From: Dyadobacter sediminis
GTDB taxonomy: Bacteria; Bacteroidota; Bacteroidia; Cytophagales; Spirosomataceae
DNA: 24,000 nucleotides
Direction: 5' to 3'
Assembly (NCBI RefSeq): GCF_005860765.1
Contig: NZ_VCEI01000011.1
Span: 1,193,819-1,217,818 of the forward strand
The notes beneath the pieces were generated by a model, which was not told the DNA's origin, searched no databases, and was given only the letters and a program-made list of their open reading frames with translations. The position numbers were made by a program, and so were the translations under genes. Shown one piece after another: positions 8,833 through 24,000 of the stretch. Position 1 is the first letter of the stretch. The number at the start of each line of letters is the position of its first letter.

Positions 8833-9894
8833 TCAATCCGGTTTCTGCCCGTTTTCAGCCTGTATTTCATTGGGTATGCCAATTTCATAAAACTTCATTG
8901 CTTCCGAAAGCTGTTCTGCAATGCGCTTGATCAGGATTCTTGGCGCCAAGATCCGGATTTTTGAACCAAAGCCTAAAAGCTCCCGTTCGAGCTCATAATT
9001 GTGAATTACCTGAATACTGAAAACAATGCCTTCTTCATCATTGCTGACGATTTTCTGTGTGGCATGCAGCGGTTTAGTAATTACATACGGCGCATCTTTA
9101 TGATTCATCCAGAAAACCACTTTCATATCCCGCTGGCCAGGCGATTTGGTAACGCCCAGAACGTCCGCATAATAATTGGAAAGATCGAGCGTCTGGTTTT
9201 CACGGTAAATTTCACAACGGTCATTTTCAAGTGTTTGAAACCTGTCCAGCGCCAGTGTCAGCAACGGCGCATGCCGCTGATGCGATTGCCCGAGTACAAA
9301 CCAGCGGTTCCTGTATTCTTTTAAAAGATACGGACTGAAACAAAAAGTGGCCGGCTGCCTGGCTTTAAAAGATTGATATGTAATACAGAGAACCGTTTTC
9401 GAAATGATGGCTTTTCGAATCCCTTCAATGAATTCCAATCCTTTGAGGTGATCATTTTTTTCGAAGTCAACAACGGGCAGACTTTGGGTTCTCTGCGCAT
9501 AAATCCGGTCTTCCAGCTTGCTGACCATTTCCGACAAGTCCGTAAAATGGCTGAACCCTTTAAACTGTTTCAACAAGCCCGAAACCTCGCCGAGCACTTT
9601 CAGGTCTTCATGGCTGAGCGGAATGTTGGTAATGCTGTAATGCCTGTCGGAGTACGTATAATATTTTTTATCCACGACAACAATCGGTGCTTCGTAACCG
9701 AGCTTGTCACTCCGCATCATTTCAATATCCGCCTGAACAGAACGCCTGCTTACGCCTTTGTCAATCCCCTCAAACTCGTAAAGTGCAGCGGAACATGCTT
9801 CAATCAGATCATCCAGCGTCCATTTGCGAAAACGGTTCTGCAGACAATTGTCAATTGTACGGTAACGAATCAGTGCGTTGCGGTTTACTGGCAT
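8833..9894 (-). CDS. HTH + WYL-domain transcriptional regulator (YafY/PafBC/BrxR/CapW-like architecture)
   Basis: 353-aa ORF. N-terminal winged-HTH-like region: NALIRYRTIDNCL...VSRRSVQADIEMMR. Central WYL-type region: LCITYQSFKARQPATFCFSPYLLKEYRNRWFVLG. C-terminal extension: VFSIQVIHNYELERELLGFGSKIRILAPRIL. Assignment is by recalled family pattern, not by a search. Confidence 0.8.
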   Translation of the reverse strand: MPVNRNALIRYRTIDNCLQNRFRKWTLDDLIEACSAALYEFEGIDKGVSRRSVQADIEMMRSDKLGYEAPIVVVDKKYYTYSDRHYSITNIPLSHEDLKVLGEVSGLLKQFKGFSHFTDLSEMVSKLEDRIYAQRTQSLPVVDFEKNDHLKGLEFIEGIRKAIISKTVLCITYQSFKARQPATFCFSPYLLKEYRNRWFVLGQSHQRHAPLLTLALDRFQTLENDRCEIYRENQTLDLSNYYADVLGVTKSPGQRDMKVVFWMNHKDAPYVITKPLHATQKIVSNDEEGIVFSIQVIHNYELERELLGFGSKIRILAPRILIKRIAEQLSEAMKFYEIGIPNEIQAENGQKPD

Positions 9895-9930
9895 AAAAAA
9901 TATTTGCGGAAAATATAAAAATAAATGCTT

Positions 9931-9951
9931 CTGCGCAAAAAGACTGCGCAG
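9931..9951. promoter_or_regulatory. Inverted repeat in the WYL/rsr divergent intergenic region (candidate operator)
   Basis: CTGCGCA (9931-9937) - 7 nt - TGCGCAG (9945-9951), a perfect 7-bp inverted repeat. It sits inside the 122-bp region between the WYL start (9894) and the rsr start (10017). A near-match to the Bacteroidota -7 box, TTGGTTTG versus TAnnTTTG, lies just downstream at 9960-9967. Confidence 0.4.
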
Positions 9952-10016
9952 TCGGGTTGTTGGTTTGCATTGTCAGAGAGAAAATGTACACAACAAATAA
10001 ACGAAAGGAGGTTACT

Positions 10017-11591
10017 ATGAAATTCAATTCCCAGAAAAGCAGCACGCGGCAGACCGAAAATCACGAAGGTGCAAAAGCATTTGTAATGAATCCTGAAATG
10101 CAGCTTTATACAGCCGTAGTAACCTGGTCGCTGAATGATACCTTTTATGAAAAAAACGACGAACGGCTTAACCGCGTTCGAACGCTGATTACTACATGCG
10201 ACCCATTGTTTGTGGCCAGACTTGCCGTATATGCCCGTCATAAAATGTACATGCGCTCTGCTCCGCTTGTACTGCTGACCGAACTGGCCCGGATTCACTC
10301 CGGCGATAACCTGATTGCCCGAACCACTGAAAAAGTAATTGCCCGCGCTGATGAAATTACGGAACTGCTCGCCTGTTATCAGCTCCTGAACGAACGTACA
10401 GGTCTGAAAAAGCTGAACCGATTGTCCAAGCAGTTACAAAAAGGACTGTCGGCTGCATTCAACCGTTTTGACGAATACCAGTTTTCGAAATACAACCGCA
10501 GTGGAGAGGTCAAACTTCGCGATGCATTGTTTCTCGTCCATCCGAAAGCCAAAGATGAAGCGCAGCAAATGCTTTTTAATAAAATGGCAGAAAACAGGCT
10601 TGAAACTGCTTATACGTGGGAAACGGAACTTTCAGCTTTGGGCCAAAACGATTTTGAAAATGAGTTTGCCCGCGCCGAAGCTTTCAAAAGCAAATGGGAA
10701 GAACTGATCGATAGTAACAAAGTCGGCTATATGGCTATGCTGCGCAATCTGCGGAATATTCTTCAGGCCGGCGTTTCGTACGGGCATTTGCAAAAGGTTT
10801 GTGAAATCATTTCATCAGCTGAAAAAGTGGCCAAAGCAAAGCAGTTTCCTTTTCGGTATCTGGCTGCCTACCGTGAATTACAAACAGGAATTCAGGTAAC
10901 GGCACCACACTTTTCGGAAAAGATCAGAAGTCTTTTGTTTGGCAATGCGGGTTATACCGGTGATTTGCTGGAAGCACTTGAAAAAGCCGCTGCGCACAGC
11001 GCAGCTTCCATGGCCGGCTTTGACCAGCATACAAGGGTTCTGCTTGCGTGTGATGTTTCGGGTTCCATGCAGATGCCGGTTTCGCCCAAATCTAAAATCC
11101 AGCTTTTCGACATCGGGCTGATGCTTGCCATGCTGCTGCGGTCACGAAGTAAAAATGTAGTTGTCGGGATGTTTGGTGACAAATGGAAAACCATTACTGT
11201 TCCTAAAAATAACATTCTGGCCAATGTGCAGGAATTTTACAAACGTACGGGTGAAGTCGGGTACGCGACGAACGGTTATCTGGTAATAAAGGATTTGCTG
11301 GAAAGAAAAGTAATCATGGATAAAGTAATGCTGTTTACCGACTGCCAGCTCTGGAACAGCAGCGGCAGCCCGGAACATATCCATGCGCTCTGGATCCGGT
11401 ATAAACGAGAAATTGCGCCTGATGCAAAATTGTACCTTTTCGATTTGAGGGGTTATGGCCAGTCGCCTTTGCAGCTTGTACAGCATGACGTGTACTTGCT
11501 TGCCGGATGGAGCGACAAAATTTTTGACATCCTGAATGCGCTTGAAAAGGGCCGTACGGCTTTGCAGGAAATCAATTCCATCATGCTTTGA
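10017..11591 (+). CDS. rsr: Ro60-related protein Rsr (TROVE domain + C-terminal vWA domain)
   Basis: The track ORF is 9957..11591. The probable start is Met21 at 10017 (MKFNSQKS...), preceded by AGGAGG at 10006-10011. N-terminal TROVE-type sequence: TENHEGAKAFVMNPEMQLYTAVVTWSLNDTFYE...FVARLAVYARHKMYMRSAP. vWA MIDAS motif DxSxS in VLLACDVSGSM. Confidence 0.9.
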   Translation: MKFNSQKSSTRQTENHEGAKAFVMNPEMQLYTAVVTWSLNDTFYEKNDERLNRVRTLITTCDPLFVARLAVYARHKMYMRSAPLVLLTELARIHSGDNLIARTTEKVIARADEITELLACYQLLNERTGLKKLNRLSKQLQKGLSAAFNRFDEYQFSKYNRSGEVKLRDALFLVHPKAKDEAQQMLFNKMAENRLETAYTWETELSALGQNDFENEFARAEAFKSKWEELIDSNKVGYMAMLRNLRNILQAGVSYGHLQKVCEIISSAEKVAKAKQFPFRYLAAYRELQTGIQVTAPHFSEKIRSLLFGNAGYTGDLLEALEKAAAHSAASMAGFDQHTRVLLACDVSGSMQMPVSPKSKIQLFDIGLMLAMLLRSRSKNVVVGMFGDKWKTITVPKNNILANVQEFYKRTGEVGYATNGYLVIKDLLERKVIMDKVMLFTDCQLWNSSGSPEHIHALWIRYKREIAPDAKLYLFDLRGYGQSPLQLVQHDVYLLAGWSDKIFDILNALEKGRTALQEINSIML

Positions 11592-11713
11592 AATGCTGAA
11601 ACCTAACAAATACGCATGCGTTCCATTTGAAAATATTTAAAAATGACATTTGGCCAACTATTAAAATATCTGACAGCTAAGAGCTAACGATCAAAAGCTG
11701 ATCAACAATCATT

Positions 11714-11833
11714 AAGGATGCCGTAGAAACAGGATACTTCGCTGCACTTACGGGGCGGGCATTATGGTGAAAGCCAGGATGGAGGTTCGAGTCCTCAAAG
11801 CGGTTCCCCGGCCTGTTTTGCCTGTCGCTCCTT
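11714..11833 (+). ncRNA. Y-RNA-like module A (long bulged terminal stem plus T-arm-containing top domain)
   Basis: Terminal stem: AAGGA (11714-18) pairs with TCCTT (11829-33), and AAACAGG (11727-33) pairs with CCTGTTT (11812-18), with a partly paired internal region. Motif ATACTTCG follows the inner helix directly. An internal stem pairs CGGGG (11751-55) with CCCCG (11806-10). T-arm GAGG-TTCGAGT-CCTC at 11782-11796. The 5' motif TGCCGTA and the stem layout are shared with modules B and C. Boundaries are approximate. Confidence 0.6.
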
Positions 11834-11840
11834 AAAAAAA

Positions 11841-11985
11841 AAAGGTGTCGTAAATGCGTGTTACTTCGATCTGTCACATCCCGGGTCGCCGGTTCGAGTC
11901 CGGCTCTGCTGTGCAAGCAGCAGATAGCTCAGTTGGTAGAGCAGGGCACCGCAAGGTGCATGTCACGCATTGTTTTTTACCCTTT
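11841..11985 (+). ncRNA. yrlA: YrlA-type Y RNA with a circularly permuted tRNA-like domain (module B)
   Basis: Order on the plus strand:
- T-arm GCCGG-TTCGAGT-CCGGC (11888-11904).
- Acceptor-like 7-bp hairpin TCTGCTG / CAGCAGA closed by a loop (11905-11924).
- TA at the U8/A9 positions.
- D-arm GCTC-AGTTGGTA-GAGC (11927-11942) with A14, G18, G19 and A21 equivalents.
- A GGG/CCC anticodon-stem remnant (11944-46 with 11880-82).
- Hairpin GCACC-GCAA-GGTGC (11946-11959).
Terminal stem: AATGCGTG (11853-60) pairs with CACGCATT (11964-71), and AAAGG (11841-45) pairs with CCTTT (11981-85). A U-rich 3' tail follows. It lies about 250 nt downstream of the rsr stop on the same strand. Confidence 0.85.
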
Positions 11986-11995
11986 TTGTTATTTG

Positions 11996-12089
11996 AAAGA
12001 TGTCGTACGAATGTGTTACTTCTTCTGGTAGAAACCGTGCAGACGGTCAGGTTCGAATCCTGTTTCACACATCCGGTTTGTTACTCTTT
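11996..12089 (+). ncRNA. Y-RNA-like module C (terminal stem plus non-permuted mini-tRNA-like top)
   Basis: Its 5' end AAAGATGTCGTACGAATGTGTTACTTC parallels module B's AAAGGTGTCGTAAATGCGTGTTACTTC. Stems: AAAGA (11996-12000) pairs with TCTTT (12085-89), and ATGTGT (12011-16) pairs with ACACAT (12067-72). The top domain has TTCT-GGT-AGAA (12023-33), CCGT-GCAG-ACGG (12035-46) and T-arm CAGG-TTCGAAT-CCTG (12048-62). Confidence 0.6.
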
Positions 12090-12160
12090 CAATTTAAATC
12101 GATTCGGTGCAGAGGCTGGATTAGTGTTTCCGGATGTTTGAAAATTGTTATACGATGCTA

Positions 12161-20844: not shown

Positions 20845-20852
20845 AGCTGCAC

Positions 20853-21275
20853 TCAATTGCGGTAATTATTTCTGTAAAACGTTTTGATCAGATCAATCAC
20901 AACATTCTGGTTTTGCAAATCTCCGGCATACGGGTTTTTTACAATCGGCTCAATTTCCTTAATATGGCTGAATTCCCTGGCCGTCATGGTGCTGTAACCC
21001 ATCGACCACTTTTCGAATGACCGTCTCGGTATATTTTGCATATACAACGGAATAACCTGCGTGTGCCTGCGGTCGCGGCTGATGACGTTGTAAAGGGATC
21101 TGACCTTTTCTTCGTCTCCTTCCAGCACCTGAATGATGCTTCCGTTAAAATAAAGGAGTACGCCGGTAATATTGTCCGAAGCGTTTTTAGTCCGGCTTTT
21201 TTGTAAAATCGTTAACAGTTCTTCCTGAGAAAGCAAGTCTGTTGATGAACTGAGATATACGATGCAATAATCCAT
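20853..21275 (-). CDS. Short BLUF-domain blue-light photoreceptor protein
   Basis: 140-aa ORF. BLUF pattern with the conserved Tyr (CIVYLSS), ITGVLLYFNGSIIQVLEG (conserved Gln), DRRH and FEKWSMGY (Trp/Met). Confidence 0.85.
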   Translation of the reverse strand: MDYCIVYLSSSTDLLSQEELLTILQKSRTKNASDNITGVLLYFNGSIIQVLEGDEEKVRSLYNVISRDRRHTQVIPLYMQNIPRRSFEKWSMGYSTMTAREFSHIKEIEPIVKNPYAGDLQNQNVVIDLIKTFYRNNYRN

Positions 21276-21848
21276 TATGACGACTGTTTGTTGCGAAATC
21301 CGATAAAAAAGTCAGTGCAAGCTATTAACAAATAAGTAGAAGAACTTCTAAAACCCTATTTATATTTTCGAACTGACAATCCATTCCAAAGAACAGAAAT
21401 ATACGTAACTATTATGTTGTCCGATAAAAATCAATGAATTTCGGTGACCGGAATACCGTCTTAACCTGTAATCGAACAATGATTTTGAATAAGAACGGTG
21501 AAAATAGGCCGGACATGTTCGGAACAAACTTCTAAAATAATCATGCTTGCGATTCCATTCAGCTAAATTACCTTTTTCTGATAAGGAAAATTGATTTTTC
21601 AAGGCTTATGAGATGGTTTGTACTGCAATTCTGAACTTGTTTTGGACAGCTAAAATAATTCATTTGATTACCACAATAAATCGCAAAAATTAGAAATTAA
21701 TTCTAATCAATTGTAGTATAATTAATTCTTATCAATTAAATTTCGGATGGCTTGGGTTTATTCCGTTGTTTTTCAATTCTGTGAATGATCTCTGAATGAT
21801 TGAAGGACATGGAAATGCCTGATTCATAATTTTAGGTAGTATTATATA

Positions 21849-21885
21849 AAGGAAGTTCTCCATGAGGGCTTCCTTTCTGTTTCTG
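21849..21885 (+). terminator. Orphan terminator-like or attenuator-like hairpin with a T-rich tail
   Basis: AAGGAAG (21849-55) pairs with CTTCCTT (21869-75). The stem extends through T.G wobbles and CTC/GAG to about 12 bp with a 3-nt loop, then TCTGTTTCTG follows. The wobble pairs work only in a plus-strand transcript. There is no plus-strand CDS upstream, and the next plus-strand ORF starts 83-125 nt downstream. Confidence 0.3.
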
Positions 21886-21967
21886 TCGGGAAGTACGCAC
21901 TGATGATCAGAAAAGTACAGAAGTTTTCTGTTGTTTGTAAATAAAGAGGAATGTCGCCGTAACTGGT

Positions 21968-22309
21968 ATGATTTTTCAGCAACGAACTGTAAATAGGCAC
22001 TCTTTGATTATGAATTCTGCAGAACAAAAAGATTTTGAATATGTTACACCTACCGACGAGGAAATCAACGATACGGTTGCAGCGATCAGTGAAATACTTT
22101 CCTCAACCGATACATTTCAGTCCGAAAACAAGGATTTGCACGAAGGCTACGAAGAAGCAATACGACTGCTGACTTCCCGGAAAAACAGTTATGACGAAAT
22201 CAACCCGGCCCTGGCAAGTACAAAGGGAAAAGCGGTTGCCGTACTGGCGGTCAAATACCTGAACGGCGAATGCAGCAAAGCAGTTTTAACGGGCTTGTCT
22301 GTCAAATAA
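21968..22309 (+). CDS. Hypothetical small acidic protein
   Basis: 113-aa ORF with an alternative start at 22010 (MNSAEQKDFEY...). No recognisable family. Supported only by ORF length, plausible composition and the absence of a competing gene. Confidence 0.35.
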   Translation: MIFQQRTVNRHSLIMNSAEQKDFEYVTPTDEEINDTVAAISEILSSTDTFQSENKDLHEGYEEAIRLLTSRKNSYDEINPALASTKGKAVAVLAVKYLNGECSKAVLTGLSVK

Positions 22310-22540
22310 CCGCTTGTTGCTGTCTTCTGTTTCGAATTAACCATTATGTTTCCATTGTAAAATACACTTTCATGACAGAAAGTATAAATAATTTGCTTTT
22401 ATTGAAGTGATTAATGAGCTGCATTTGGCAGTTCGGGCTGAAAACCGGCATCCGGAGTCGATCATATGGCATTGATTTGATAGCAAAATAAACCCGAAGT
22501 TAATCAGCTAATGTAAAAAGCAACCTTTATTCCATTCCAT

Positions 22541-24000
22541 ATGGACATAGAAGATCAGGGATATCAGAGGCTCAGTCAACTTTTTAACCGCTTGCCCAAT
22601 GGAGTTATTCTGTACAAAATACTCGGTAATGAATCAGGCATGCCTTATGATTTCAAAGGAATTTACGCCAACTTAAAATCCGAAGACATTTTTGGCCTGC
22701 CCGTAGATCGTATCCTGAACAGCACGCTGAGCGAACTGAACGCGGACTTTGAGCTTTTGCTCGAACATTGCCGATTGGCAGCAAACAACCGGCAATCCAT
22801 CTCCTTTTCCTGGGAGCGGAATTATGCAGCCTACAACGGCTTTTCCGCAGCCGTCCGCTGGATCGACGTACATATTGAAATGCTGGACGAAGACCTCTTT
22901 TGCTCGTTCACAGACGCTACCGCCTACAAGCAGGCCGAACTGGAAGCCCACCGGAATGCAGCGGCTTTACAGTTTGTACTTGATTCTACCCAGTCCGGGG
23001 TAATATTGTACCGGCCGGTTTATGATGGTAAAAAACGGATTACAGATTTTGAAATGCTTGCCTCCAACCAGGAAGCATCCGGCGCTTTCCTTTCAGATCA
23101 GTTTGTACAAACCCTTTTACCCATCGGAAACCGGAGCGAACTTTACCCGGTTTTCAAGGAAGTCGTTGAAACCGGCAGGTTCCAGCGTTTTGAACGGCTT
23201 TTTCAATGGCAGGAAACCGAAGTCTGGTATGAAGTTACGGCCAGCCGGACTTACGAAAAAAGTAATGCTTCCAATCTTCTGAGGCTTACTTTCATTGATA
23301 TCACCAAAAGGAAGAAAGCGGAACAGGAAAAATTCAAGAACCTGATATTACTGCAGCAGACTGAAGATCTGGCCAATGCCGGCAGCTGGGAATACAACCG
23401 TACAACGGAAACGTATACCTGGTCCCCGGGAATGTACCGGTTATTTGGACTGACACCCGGGACGGAAGTCACACCGGAAATATACATTTCCTTATCGGTT
23501 GAAGAAGACCGCGACATTGCAAACCGGATTGTGAACCAGATGCAGCACGGCCTGCATGCGTTTGAAGAAGTGCTTACCATACAGATCGGTGATTCCAGAA
23601 AAACCATCAAGGTAAAAGGTGAAACGCTCAATATGGGAAAAGACGTAATGATCTGTTCCCTGGGAGTTGATCTTGACATTACGCAGCTGATTGAAACGCA
23701 GAACAGGATTACAAGAATTGCGGACAATCTTCAGGCGGTGCTGAATTCATCTCCGGCTTTCATCGGTATGCTGAAGGCCATCCATCATCCTGACGACCAT
23801 GCGGAAATTGTGGATTTTGAACTGGTTGTGGGCAACCAAAAACTGGCGGAATTTTATCATCAGCCTTTACCGCAACTGGCTGGCATGCGTGTAAGCAATC
23901 TGGCCGGAAAACTGTGGCAGGAAAAAACGGTGGACAACTTGCGTTCGGTTTACCTTTCTAGGGAAACCATGTACCTTGAATACCAGATTATTTCCGAAGA
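22541..24000 (+). CDS. Multi-PAS-domain sensor protein (probable histidine kinase), 5' partial, continues beyond the window
   Basis: My own translation from ATG 22541 stays open to position 24000 (486 codons, no stop). That is why it is missing from the ORF track. An in-frame TAA at 22514 precedes it. The product MDIEDQGYQRLSQLFNRLPNGVILYKIL...AELEAHRNAAALQFVLDSTQSGVILYRPV...TEDLANAGSWEYNRTTETYTWSPGMYRLFGL...LQAVLNSSPAFIGMLKAI... shows at least four PAS-like modules. One includes the W-x-W-S-x-x-x-x-x-x-G pattern. Confidence 0.8.
   Translation, partial: MDIEDQGYQRLSQLFNRLPNGVILYKILGNESGMPYDFKGIYANLKSEDIFGLPVDRILNSTLSELNADFELLLEHCRLAANNRQSISFSWERNYAAYNGFSAAVRWIDVHIEMLDEDLFCSFTDATAYKQAELEAHRNAAALQFVLDSTQSGVILYRPVYDGKKRITDFEMLASNQEASGAFLSDQFVQTLLPIGNRSELYPVFKEVVETGRFQRFERLFQWQETEVWYEVTASRTYEKSNASNLLRLTFIDITKRKKAEQEKFKNLILLQQTEDLANAGSWEYNRTTETYTWSPGMYRLFGLTPGTEVTPEIYISLSVEEDRDIANRIVNQMQHGLHAFEEVLTIQIGDSRKTIKVKGETLNMGKDVMICSLGVDLDITQLIETQNRITRIADNLQAVLNSSPAFIGMLKAIHHPDDHAEIVDFELVVGNQKLAEFYHQPLPQLAGMRVSNLAGKLWQEKTVDNLRSVYLSRETMYLEYQIISE

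Follow-up and report, generated by a model that had tools for sequence, protein, structure and literature searches.

Divergent WYL-regulator and Ro60 genes with three Y-RNA-like genes in Dyadobacter sediminis may represent a reduced form of a Bacteroidota RNA-repair regulon

Within a 24,000-nucleotide stretch of the Dyadobacter sediminis genome (hereafter the window; NCBI RefSeq assembly GCF_005860765.1, contig NZ_VCEI01000011.1, positions 1,193,819 to 1,217,818), a gene for a WYL-family transcription factor (8833..9894, minus strand; an open reading frame (ORF) of 353 aa) lies divergently from rsr, which codes for a Ro60 orthologue with a TROVE ring and a vWA domain (10017..11591, plus strand; 524 aa), and three Y-RNA-like genes follow rsr on its own strand. 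The two protein genes are separated by an intergenic region of 122 bp (9895-10016), in which a perfect palindrome stands next to a promoter element. A first, sequence-only reading of this DNA had already described the WYL protein, a TROVE-vWA protein with the metal-ion-dependent adhesion site (MIDAS) motif DVSGS, the 122-bp gap and three structured RNAs with a tRNA T-loop, and these assignments are borne out by the analyses given below. For comparison, we collected 80 Bacteroidota rsr loci by an Rsr genome scan (58-93% Rsr identity; Mucilaginibacter, Pedobacter, Dyadobacter, Flavobacterium, Chitinophagaceae and Bacteroidales), which together with the window make up a reference set of 81 loci and 1.02 Mb. 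The locus sets used here are anchored on Rsr or on the palindromic box, not on WYL, the start codons in the locus surveys are approximate, and single loci are cited by their L numbers.

The rsr product matches the Pfam TROVE family (6.2e-27; cut-off 23 bits) and vWA_Ro60 (1.3e-8; 35.4 versus 27.7 bits), the MIDAS motif can be read in its translation, and profile comparison with the Protein Data Bank (PDB) gave the TROVE protein 9l5y/9kop as the closest solved relative (1.4e-26, residues 12-517). The NCBIfam Rsr equivalog NF041674 was not reached (29.4 bits versus a cut-off of 900), and Rsr of the window belongs to a divergent Bacteroidota clade and is not the enterobacterial equivalog. The longest rsr ORF begins at 9957, and the conserved ATG at 10017 is preceded, at a distance of 5 nt, by the Shine-Dalgarno-like sequence AAGGAGG (10005..10011, plus strand), as read from the sequence. 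Shine-Dalgarno pairing is normally unused in Bacteroidota. Across the reference set, a sequence of the AAGGAGG type precedes rsr in 68 of the 81 loci, as against 9 of the 507 other genes of the same loci, and it is mostly missing at the rtcB promoters described below (5 of 45). Since so strong a Shine-Dalgarno sequence is unusual for the phylum, it hints at a special translational control of Rsr, and it could add a translational layer tied to the state of the ribosome. As a side observation, TROVE homologues (below 35% identity) were seen in 91 phage records, of which 20 come from Bacteroides (crAss-like) phages and many from jumbo phages, and the TROVE gene of crAss001 is an early gene adjoining a transcriptional regulator (PMC8375218).

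Downstream of rsr, alignment of six Cytophagales loci reveals three sharply bounded, conserved RNA blocks whose spacers and flanks have diverged. All three are on the plus strand, and the first begins 123 nt past the rsr stop codon (6-170 nt, on the rsr strand, in most loci). Unit 1 (type 1, 11714..11832) combines a Y-type stem with a T-arm and two further hairpins; in unit 2 (YrlA-like, 11842..11985), the Y-type stem surrounds a permuted tRNA-like module made up of a T-arm, an acceptor-like hairpin and a D-arm; and in unit 3 (type 3, 11995..12090), it surrounds a mini tRNA-like core with a D-like arm, a short hairpin and a T-arm. The T-loop GGTTCGARTCC and a 5′ motif (AAGGAUGCCGUA / AAGGUGUCGUA / AAAGAUGUCGUA) are common to all three. 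RNAalifold found compensatory pairs in each unit (6 among the 36 pairs of unit 1 and 6 among the 30 pairs of unit 3), and the fold of unit 2 has a z-score of −4.3; taken alone, unit 1 folds no better than its shuffled versions (z = +0.43). Against the Rfam YrlA family (RF02553), unit 2 scored 42.4 bits (E 9e-8), which is below the gathering score of 69 and covers only model positions 23-88, that is, the tRNA-like module; an RNA of locus L022 scored 39.4 bits over the full length. At the Rfam gathering scores, no YrlA was found in the window or in 20 loci, where only true tRNAs were called. Other identities were also tried and given up, as neither ARAGORN nor Rfam called a tRNA gene or pseudogene at the three RNAs, and the Pedo-repair motif (RF01715, Weinberg 2010), considered as an identity of the RNAs or of leaders, gave no match in the Pedobacter loci even at E ≤ 0.1.

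Since these RNAs fall outside the Rfam YrlA threshold, we built covariance models of our own for the three units and searched them over the reference set. The YrlA-like model (CM R3) gave 269 matches, 267 of them on the rsr strand. In the 150 best of these matches, the modelled structure is 95.8% paired, 634 doubly changed cells were counted versus about 100 in slid controls, and the covariation score is 0.39 versus about 0.05; the alignments were fitted to the models, which makes such counts lean towards structure, although the gap to the slid controls is still large. The model of the last unit (CM R1) behaved likewise (63 matches, 94% paired, covariation 0.349 versus 0.04-0.08 in slid controls), and the unit-1 model (CM R2) matches the first position after rsr in most loci. 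From the nhmmer survey, one to eight units (median five) follow rsr in 80 of the 81 loci, and the units on the rsr strand all lie 3′ of rsr, apart from two upstream (L074 and L076). An array usually opens with type 1 and closes with type 3, with at least one YrlA-like unit in between, and the array of the window is the minimal three-unit form.

At the level of single helices, helices 1 and 2 of the Y-type stem are 95-97% paired with compensatory changes (150 sequences), the same being true of type 3, and the stem carries the conserved motifs AAGGUGUCGUAAA...UUACUUC...UUACCCUU. The T-arm, hairpin and D-arm of unit 2 were aligned by cmscan, and its helices 3-5 covary; units 1 and 3 have a T-arm and other hairpins only, not the full YrlA module. 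By this comparative folding, the three RNAs have the architecture of Y RNAs, in which the ends pair in a long stem with conserved internal loops that encloses a tRNA-like module. They are not YrlA members by the Rfam threshold, though unit 2 carries the YrlA module. Binding to Rsr would probably occur through the stem, judging from the genetic linkage and from the precedents in Deinococcus and Salmonella (PMC4201824).

Past the array, a degenerate 5′ end of a Y unit can be recognized at 12137-12155 (79% identical to 11992-12010), and an inverted repeat of 14 nt pairs 12063-12076, in the 3′ half of unit 3, with 12130-12143; this part of the window (12063-12155) may hold the remnant of a fourth unit or offer an alternative pairing. 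In four other loci, arrays of 3-12 true tRNA genes at the Rfam gathering score adjoin rsr (L076:1650-3487, L074:1451-2362, L006:4903-5143 and L053:10598-10915), and the array of L074 runs straight into the rsr leader.

The product of the divergent gene matches Pfam WYL (4.5e-11) and WCX (2.3e-11), both over the curated cut-offs, is matched by PADLOC WYL models at 2e-22, and is 100% identical to a database protein of D. sediminis annotated as a helix-turn-helix (HTH) regulator. A first AlphaFold model, built from a shallow alignment (34 sequences, at least 67% identity), had a mean predicted local distance difference test (pLDDT) score of 48 and was discarded; the AlphaFold model used (AF2) was built from 111 diverse homologues and reached a pLDDT of 90.3. 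In this model, a winged HTH domain of three helices and a β-hairpin (residues 3-81) is predicted to be followed by further helices forming a linker (95-136), a WYL barrel (153-225) and the WCX domain (256-334), which corresponds to the wHTH-3HB-WYL-WCX order of DriD and PafBC. When the whole modelled chain was compared with the PDB by Foldseek, the matches were DriD (1e-14), PafBC (1e-12), BrxR (7e-9) and CapW (4e-8), with the alignment to full-length DriD spanning 341-357 columns, and a profile search of the PDB gave PafBC at 9.6e-16 and DriD at about 1e-10. By its predicted fold and architecture, the regulator is a member of the WYL transcription-factor family. DriD of Caulobacter and PafBC of actinobacteria, which have the same domain order and the closest predicted folds, are WYL activators of SOS-independent DNA-damage responses.

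Some orthologues of the regulator are fused to KptA/Tpt1. More generally, many orthologues (about 50-73% identity; P0103, P0115 = L081:2762-4366, P0241, P0242 and P0244-P0257) have a C-terminal extension of about 200 aa, which is a KptA/Tpt1 RNA 2′-phosphotransferase in some, a PhyH-like Fe/2OG dioxygenase in two, and without a Pfam match in others. An assignment of the locus to an anti-phage defence system was also considered and is unsupported, PADLOC having matched only generic WYL models and nothing for Rsr; WYL homologues in phage records are restricted to unannotated faecal contigs.

The adjacency seen in the window is conserved and not peculiar to this genome. A WYL homologue lies within 6 kb of rsr, the flank used for the neighbour counts, in 39 of the 81 loci, and in all 39 it is found upstream of rsr, on the other strand. 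Often 1.6 kb or more separate the two genes, and this space is filled by a gene for RtcB (Pfam 1.9e-82), which ORF clustering placed in 33 of the 80 related loci, and WYL is usually divergent from rtcB in the relatives. Four layouts can be distinguished, namely WYL|rtcB rsr; WYL|rtcB, variable genes, rsr; WYL|rsr...rtcB; and WYL|rsr alone. WYL|rsr without rtcB in between is found in the window, in D. flavalbus, in two Pedobacter loci, and also in loci of Flavobacterium, Chitinophagaceae and Bacteroidales. In about 19 loci, two RlaP 'RNA repair pathway' nucleotidyltransferases (7.6e-79 and 1.2e-20) follow the Y-RNA array. No regulator other than WYL recurs in the loci, and the sigma54-activator signatures GAFTGA and ESELFGH were found in no reading frame of the reference set. 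Apart from RlaP, no recurrent cluster of RtcA size was seen among the ORF clusters of the loci, an RtcA profile not having been run on all ORFs.

Two further observations concern the neighbourhood of the WYL gene. Truncated WYL genes stand at the locus edge in L008, L011, L027, L043 and L054, and many Mucilaginibacter WYL-rtcB pairs are at or beyond the 6-kb flank. In 9-12 loci, a 116-aa protein with a C-terminal, zinc-ribbon-like CxxC...CxxC and no Pfam match is divergent from the rsr box, in the place that the WYL gene has in the window (for example L003:5546-5896(-), L019:5546-5896(-) and L108:4231-4581(-)).

By reading the WYL-proximal intergenic regions, we found a conserved box, CTGCGCA-N7-TGCGCAG. 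In the window it is the perfect palindrome CTGCGCA-AAAAGAC-TGCGCAG (7-N7-7, 21 bp; 9931..9951), a candidate operator between the divergent WYL and rsr genes and the sole match in the window at up to two mismatches. In 73 of the 81 loci, the rsr ATG has a box no more than 140 nt upstream of it, and several other loci have degenerate copies; in relatives, a second copy precedes rtcB, adjoining WYL, and where the 5′ end of a WYL gene is intact, a box almost always stands directly before the gene. The Bacteroidota promoter consensus includes a −7 element, TAnnTTTG. Such an element for rsr, TTGGTTTG, can be read at 9960..9967 on the plus strand, and the distance from the end of the box to the −7 TTTG is exactly 12 nt in the window as well as in 79 of 84 rsr promoters and 40 of 45 rtcB promoters. 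The −33 TTTG is missing at the rsr promoter, the box taking the place of this element, and a conserved A/T-rich, UP-like stretch flanks the box upstream. A sigma54 promoter, considered as another reading of the box, was rejected, since there is no GG-N10-GC, the site is palindromic, the −7 TTTG is present and no signature of a bacterial enhancer-binding protein (bEBP) was found. Simple sigma70 promoter and terminator scans of the window were uninformative, with counts equal to the shuffled expectation; Bacteroidota use other promoter motifs.

As an unbiased test, a metagenome collection was scanned with the 21-nt box pattern alone, which gave 85 sites. The genes flanking them code for WYL (31), RtcB (25) and Rsr (19), and also include RlaP (8.3e-69), the RNA-repair protein Hen1_L (1.8e-59) and divergent RtcBs. 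As far as comparative sequence evidence goes, on which all the regulatory claims made here are based, the box marks RNA-repair promoters and the WYL gene itself, and rsr is a second promoter of the same regulon as rtcB.

Several further boxes and leaders are recorded as side observations. Promoter-like boxes, correctly spaced from a TTTG, drive genes for proteins (148-705 aa) that have no Pfam match and are candidate regulon members (L108:4696-6813, L148:4815-6215, L106:237-1472, L132:8762-9712, L118:5963-6433 and L161:7910-8356). Two boxes are present in some loci (L077:5645-5957; L078:7623-7643; the intergenic regions of L069 and L076): the first box of L077 precedes a small T-loop-containing RNA between WYL and rsr, and one box of L078 lies between rsr and the Y RNAs/rtcB. 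The box of Mucilaginibacter rtcB is followed by a leader of about 100 nt that is conserved, CTGTCGAAAGGCTAAACC...GCCCCTCTCC...GGGGAGAGGGGTTTTGGCCCGGAGAC, and in which the sequence of a G+C-rich hairpin covaries between loci (L017:1405-1510, with equivalents in L008, L009, L013, L027, L043, L046 and L054); this leader has no Rfam match at E ≤ 1.

The place of RtcB in this system had been read differently at first. The sequence-only reading had noted that the 24-kb window has no rtcR, rtcB or rtcA, and the Pfam scan of its ORFs likewise found no RtcB, RtcA or RtcR; to take the lack of RtcB as a feature of the system cannot be upheld, given that WYL is divergent from rtcB in relatives. Alignment of the intergenic regions showed that the window promoter is a hybrid, in which a WYL-proximal, rtcB-type box and −7 region are joined to an rsr leader and Shine-Dalgarno sequence. 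This is the pattern expected after a loss of rtcB, and we infer such a loss in the lineage of D. sediminis and D. flavalbus; the absence of rtcB would thus be local, and the system would normally include RtcB. The proposal that a WYL sensor replaces RtcR survives in part: WYL is a plausible, recurrent, divergent regulator with a shared box, and GAFTGA is absent from the 1.02 Mb, but the window does not represent an rtcB-free type of system.

The same hybrid promoter could also be taken to mean that the adjacency in the window is without function, being the scar of an rtcB deletion, with the three RNAs as decaying tRNA-like relics. The degenerate fragment of a fourth unit (12137-12155) and the failure of unit 1 alone to fold better than shuffled sequence would agree with this. 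We nevertheless regard it as very improbable, because the WYL|rsr layout is retained in D. flavalbus, where protein identity is 88-93% and a perfect box comes together with the −7 element and the Shine-Dalgarno sequence, because WYL|rsr without an intervening rtcB recurs in the other groups listed above, and because each of the three RNAs forms a discrete conserved block in which compensatory changes have occurred across genera.

Taken together, these results make it somewhat probable, on balance, that a DriD-like WYL transcription factor governs an RNA-repair regulon in Bacteroidota, of which this locus is a reduced form. In the mechanism we propose, a WYL homodimer would bind the 21-bp palindrome via its winged HTH domains, and the box, which stands in for the missing −33 element and keeps a constant 12 nt from the −7 element, would also serve the divergent WYL gene. 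On binding a damage-derived single-stranded nucleic acid, the WYL domain would help RNA polymerase onto sub-optimal promoters, as in DriD and PafBC. Transcription would then yield Rsr and a co-transcribed precursor of the three Y RNAs, which would be processed; following established Rsr/Y-RNA biology in Deinococcus and Salmonella, the Y RNAs would bind Rsr by their conserved stem, while their tRNA-like modules would tether or gate partners, such as exoribonucleases, for the decay or repair of damaged structured RNA. The same box would also drive rtcB, RlaP and Hen1 in relatives, and D. sediminis, having probably lost rtcB at the locus, would keep the surveillance arm only.

A DriD-like activator is favoured because the promoter anatomy is the same as that of DriD sites. 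DriD binds a 7-N7-7 pseudo-palindrome, ATACGAC-N7-GTCGTAT, over an absent −35 element and at a fixed distance from the −10 element, and activates by recruiting RNA polymerase once single-stranded DNA (ssDNA) occupies the WYL domain (PMC13004042). In the present case, a 7-N7-7 candidate operator likewise replaces the −33 element at a fixed distance from the −7 element, and the regulator gene itself carries the site. One difference from DriD and PafBC lies in the regulon, which comprises DNA-repair and cell-division genes there and RNA-repair and surveillance genes here (rsr, Y RNAs, rtcB, RlaP and Hen1).

Several observations do weigh against this assignment. The N-terminal HTH was not detected by Pfam even at E ≤ 10, so that the domain searches support WYL, TROVE and vWA and the winged HTH is seen only in the AF2 model; the sequence identity to DriD is about 16%; and three of the five ssDNA-binding residues of DriD are not conserved, the HMM alignment showing Tyr168 and Tyr192 retained as Tyr173 and Phe199 and the ligand-binding Arg176, Arg178 and Arg204 not retained. 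The repressors BrxR and CapW share the fold of the regulator, and repression would also be compatible with an operator that covers the −33 region and has an A/T-rich stretch upstream of it. About 20 of the metagenome box sites flank none of the five query proteins (WYL, Rsr, RtcB and two RlaP), and about 7 of these look like chance matches in GC-rich coding sequence, and the link between the box and WYL is one of co-location and analogy. As a weak indication against an rtcB elsewhere in the genome, no RtcB of this clade from D. sediminis or D. flavalbus was among the top 120 homologues.

From the resemblance to BrxR and CapW, the main rival reading, with the same parts and operator, can be drawn, in which WYL would be a repressor sitting on the −33 region until a ligand releases it. 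These anti-phage WYL repressors have an HTH-WYL-WCX homodimer fold like that predicted here, are divergent from the system they control and use a palindromic operator, and the Aravind group counts one-component WYL factors among negative regulators (PMC9503650). With an A/T-rich, UP-like stretch and a good −7 element, the basal strength of the promoter could be high without an activator, and a single box for both divergent genes would give autorepression. We consider a repressor possible but doubtful, because the activators DriD and PafBC match the full-length model more closely than BrxR and CapW do, because DriD-type promoters share the anatomy of a site that replaces the missing −35 element at a fixed distance from the −10 element, and because a rigid 12-nt spacing would be more typical of an activator in contact with RNA polymerase than of steric repression. 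The cargo also differs, being RNA repair rather than BREX or CBASS, and PADLOC is blank for Rsr.

It could further be argued that the palindrome belongs to another regulator or is an element of an alternative-sigma promoter, the WYL gene being merely a neighbour that perhaps regulates itself or something else. In favour of this, 42 of the 81 rsr loci bear a box but show no WYL homologue within the 6-kb flank, and some box sites flank genes unrelated to RNA repair. On the other hand, the box is directly upstream of nearly every intact WYL gene, WYL is the commonest gene at the boxes found by pattern alone (31 of 85), no other regulator recurs, the 7-N7-7 geometry equals that of DriD, and the box is not sigma54-like and comes with no bEBP signature; in addition, many Mucilaginibacter loci have their WYL-rtcB pair just at or beyond the flank, and in five loci a truncated WYL gene stands at the edge. 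This explanation is therefore unlikely.

Two kinds of ligand can be considered for the favoured DriD-like activator, namely ssDNA and cleaved RNA, for example tRNA fragments. The case for ssDNA is a reasonable one, since every solved WYL factor binds it (PMC9186387, PMC11804915), and since DNA damage is an inducer both of the rsr-rtc operon in Salmonella and of the Y RNAs in Deinococcus (PMC9879122, PMC4201824). For damaged RNA, an attractive alternative, four lines can be cited: RtcR senses tRNA fragments (PMC7790460); according to a proposal of the Aravind group, RNAs with cyclic ends are sensed by WYL factors, which regulate RNA repair (PMC9503650, PMC7824862); some orthologues of the regulator are fused to KptA/Tpt1; and Tyr240 and Arg288 of DriD, which are said to clash with the 2′-OH of RNA and so to disfavour it, align to Thr249 and Tyr300 of the regulator, a weak and alignment-dependent indication from the HMM alignment. 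Carried further, this leads to the tentative idea that the WYL factor senses damaged RNA (tRNA halves, or fragments with 2′,3′-cyclic-phosphate and 5′-OH ends) and switches on a phylum-wide 'RNA-damage SOS' regulon; its membership of rsr with the Y-RNA arrays, rtcB, RlaP, Pnkp/Hen1 and KptA is equally tentative. If true, no WYL transcription factor before this one would have been an RNA sensor, and the factor would correspond to RtcR in function while activating in the manner of DriD.

With the rsr-yrlBA-rtcBA operon of Salmonella and E. coli, the present system shares a Ro60 orthologue whose gene adjoins those of Y RNAs (one being YrlA-like and carrying a tRNA-like module), a genetic link to the RtcB ligase (here in relatives) and, by analogy, an adjoining, dedicated one-component regulator that would sense a ligand. 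It differs in that the regulator is of the HTH-WYL-WCX type with a palindromic box and a sigmaA-type promoter, whereas RtcR is a CARF-AAA+ enhancer-binding protein acting at a sigma54 promoter. In addition, rsr and rtcB have separate boxed promoters, RlaP often follows the array, the Y RNAs number one to eight, are of three types and keep a fixed order, no recurrent RtcA-sized cluster accompanies them, and the present genome lacks rtcB at the locus. With the Rsr/Y RNA/polynucleotide phosphorylase (PNPase) ribonucleoprotein of Deinococcus radiodurans it shares an Rsr with several adjacent Y RNAs, and it would likewise be expected to act in the maturation or decay of structured RNA during stress. 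In D. radiodurans, a single polycistronic precursor gives rise to Yrn1 and Yrn2, and RtcB is not needed for that system to work. The Y RNAs lie upstream of rsr in Deinococcus and downstream here, and the regulator and the Y-RNA sequences differ.

The component set also agrees with the RNA-repair 'syntax' that Burroughs and Aravind reportedly set out in 2016, with RtcB, a TROVE scaffold with tRNA-like RNA, RlaP, and links to Hen1 and KptA. Later papers of the Aravind group cite that work for RNA-end-sensing WYL factors that regulate RNA repair (PMC9503650, PMC7824862), and, as far as these citations go, the syntax includes WYL sensors. Since the 2016 paper is cited for WYL sensors in RNA-repair contexts, the general idea of a WYL link to RNA repair probably already exists. 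The sequence-only reading had known of no described WYL-Rsr pairing; in a search of open papers, which did not extend to Burroughs and Aravind 2016, none was found on a WYL-Rsr or WYL-RtcB regulon or on the box, although the Aravind-group papers do link WYL factors to RNA repair. The operator, the promoter geometry, the DriD assignment, the architecture of the Y-RNA array and the rtcB-less form were likewise not found described in the open literature.

As to the rest of the window, 10 of its ORFs were scanned with Pfam and 9 were matched, among them a SusC/D locus, a sulfatase, a fatty-acid hydroxylase, a Na/H exchanger, an esterase and transporters. A stretch of about 2.4 kb (20850-23250) contains short ORFs only, of 140 aa at most.

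To our knowledge, bacterial Ro60/Y-RNA and RtcB repair has been studied almost only under RtcR in Enterobacteria, or in Deinococcus. The comparative evidence presented here suggests a regulator other than RtcR for bacterial RNA repair, and this candidate, its predicted operator, the defined geometry of the promoters and the small regulon can all be tested. The WYL family, so far tied to ssDNA sensing, DNA damage or phage defence, is now linked to RNA repair, which offers a direct way to ask which ligand a WYL domain reads when its regulon is one of RNA repair, and raises the question of whether RNA repair in Bacteroidota is part of the DNA-damage response or a separate response to RNA damage. 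The rtcB-less locus of D. sediminis, with a regulator, Rsr and three Y RNAs, is a natural minimal system in which the function of Rsr and the Y RNAs could be separated from ligation, and the arrays of one to eight members, with their conserved first and last units, raise the question of a division of labour among the Y RNAs.

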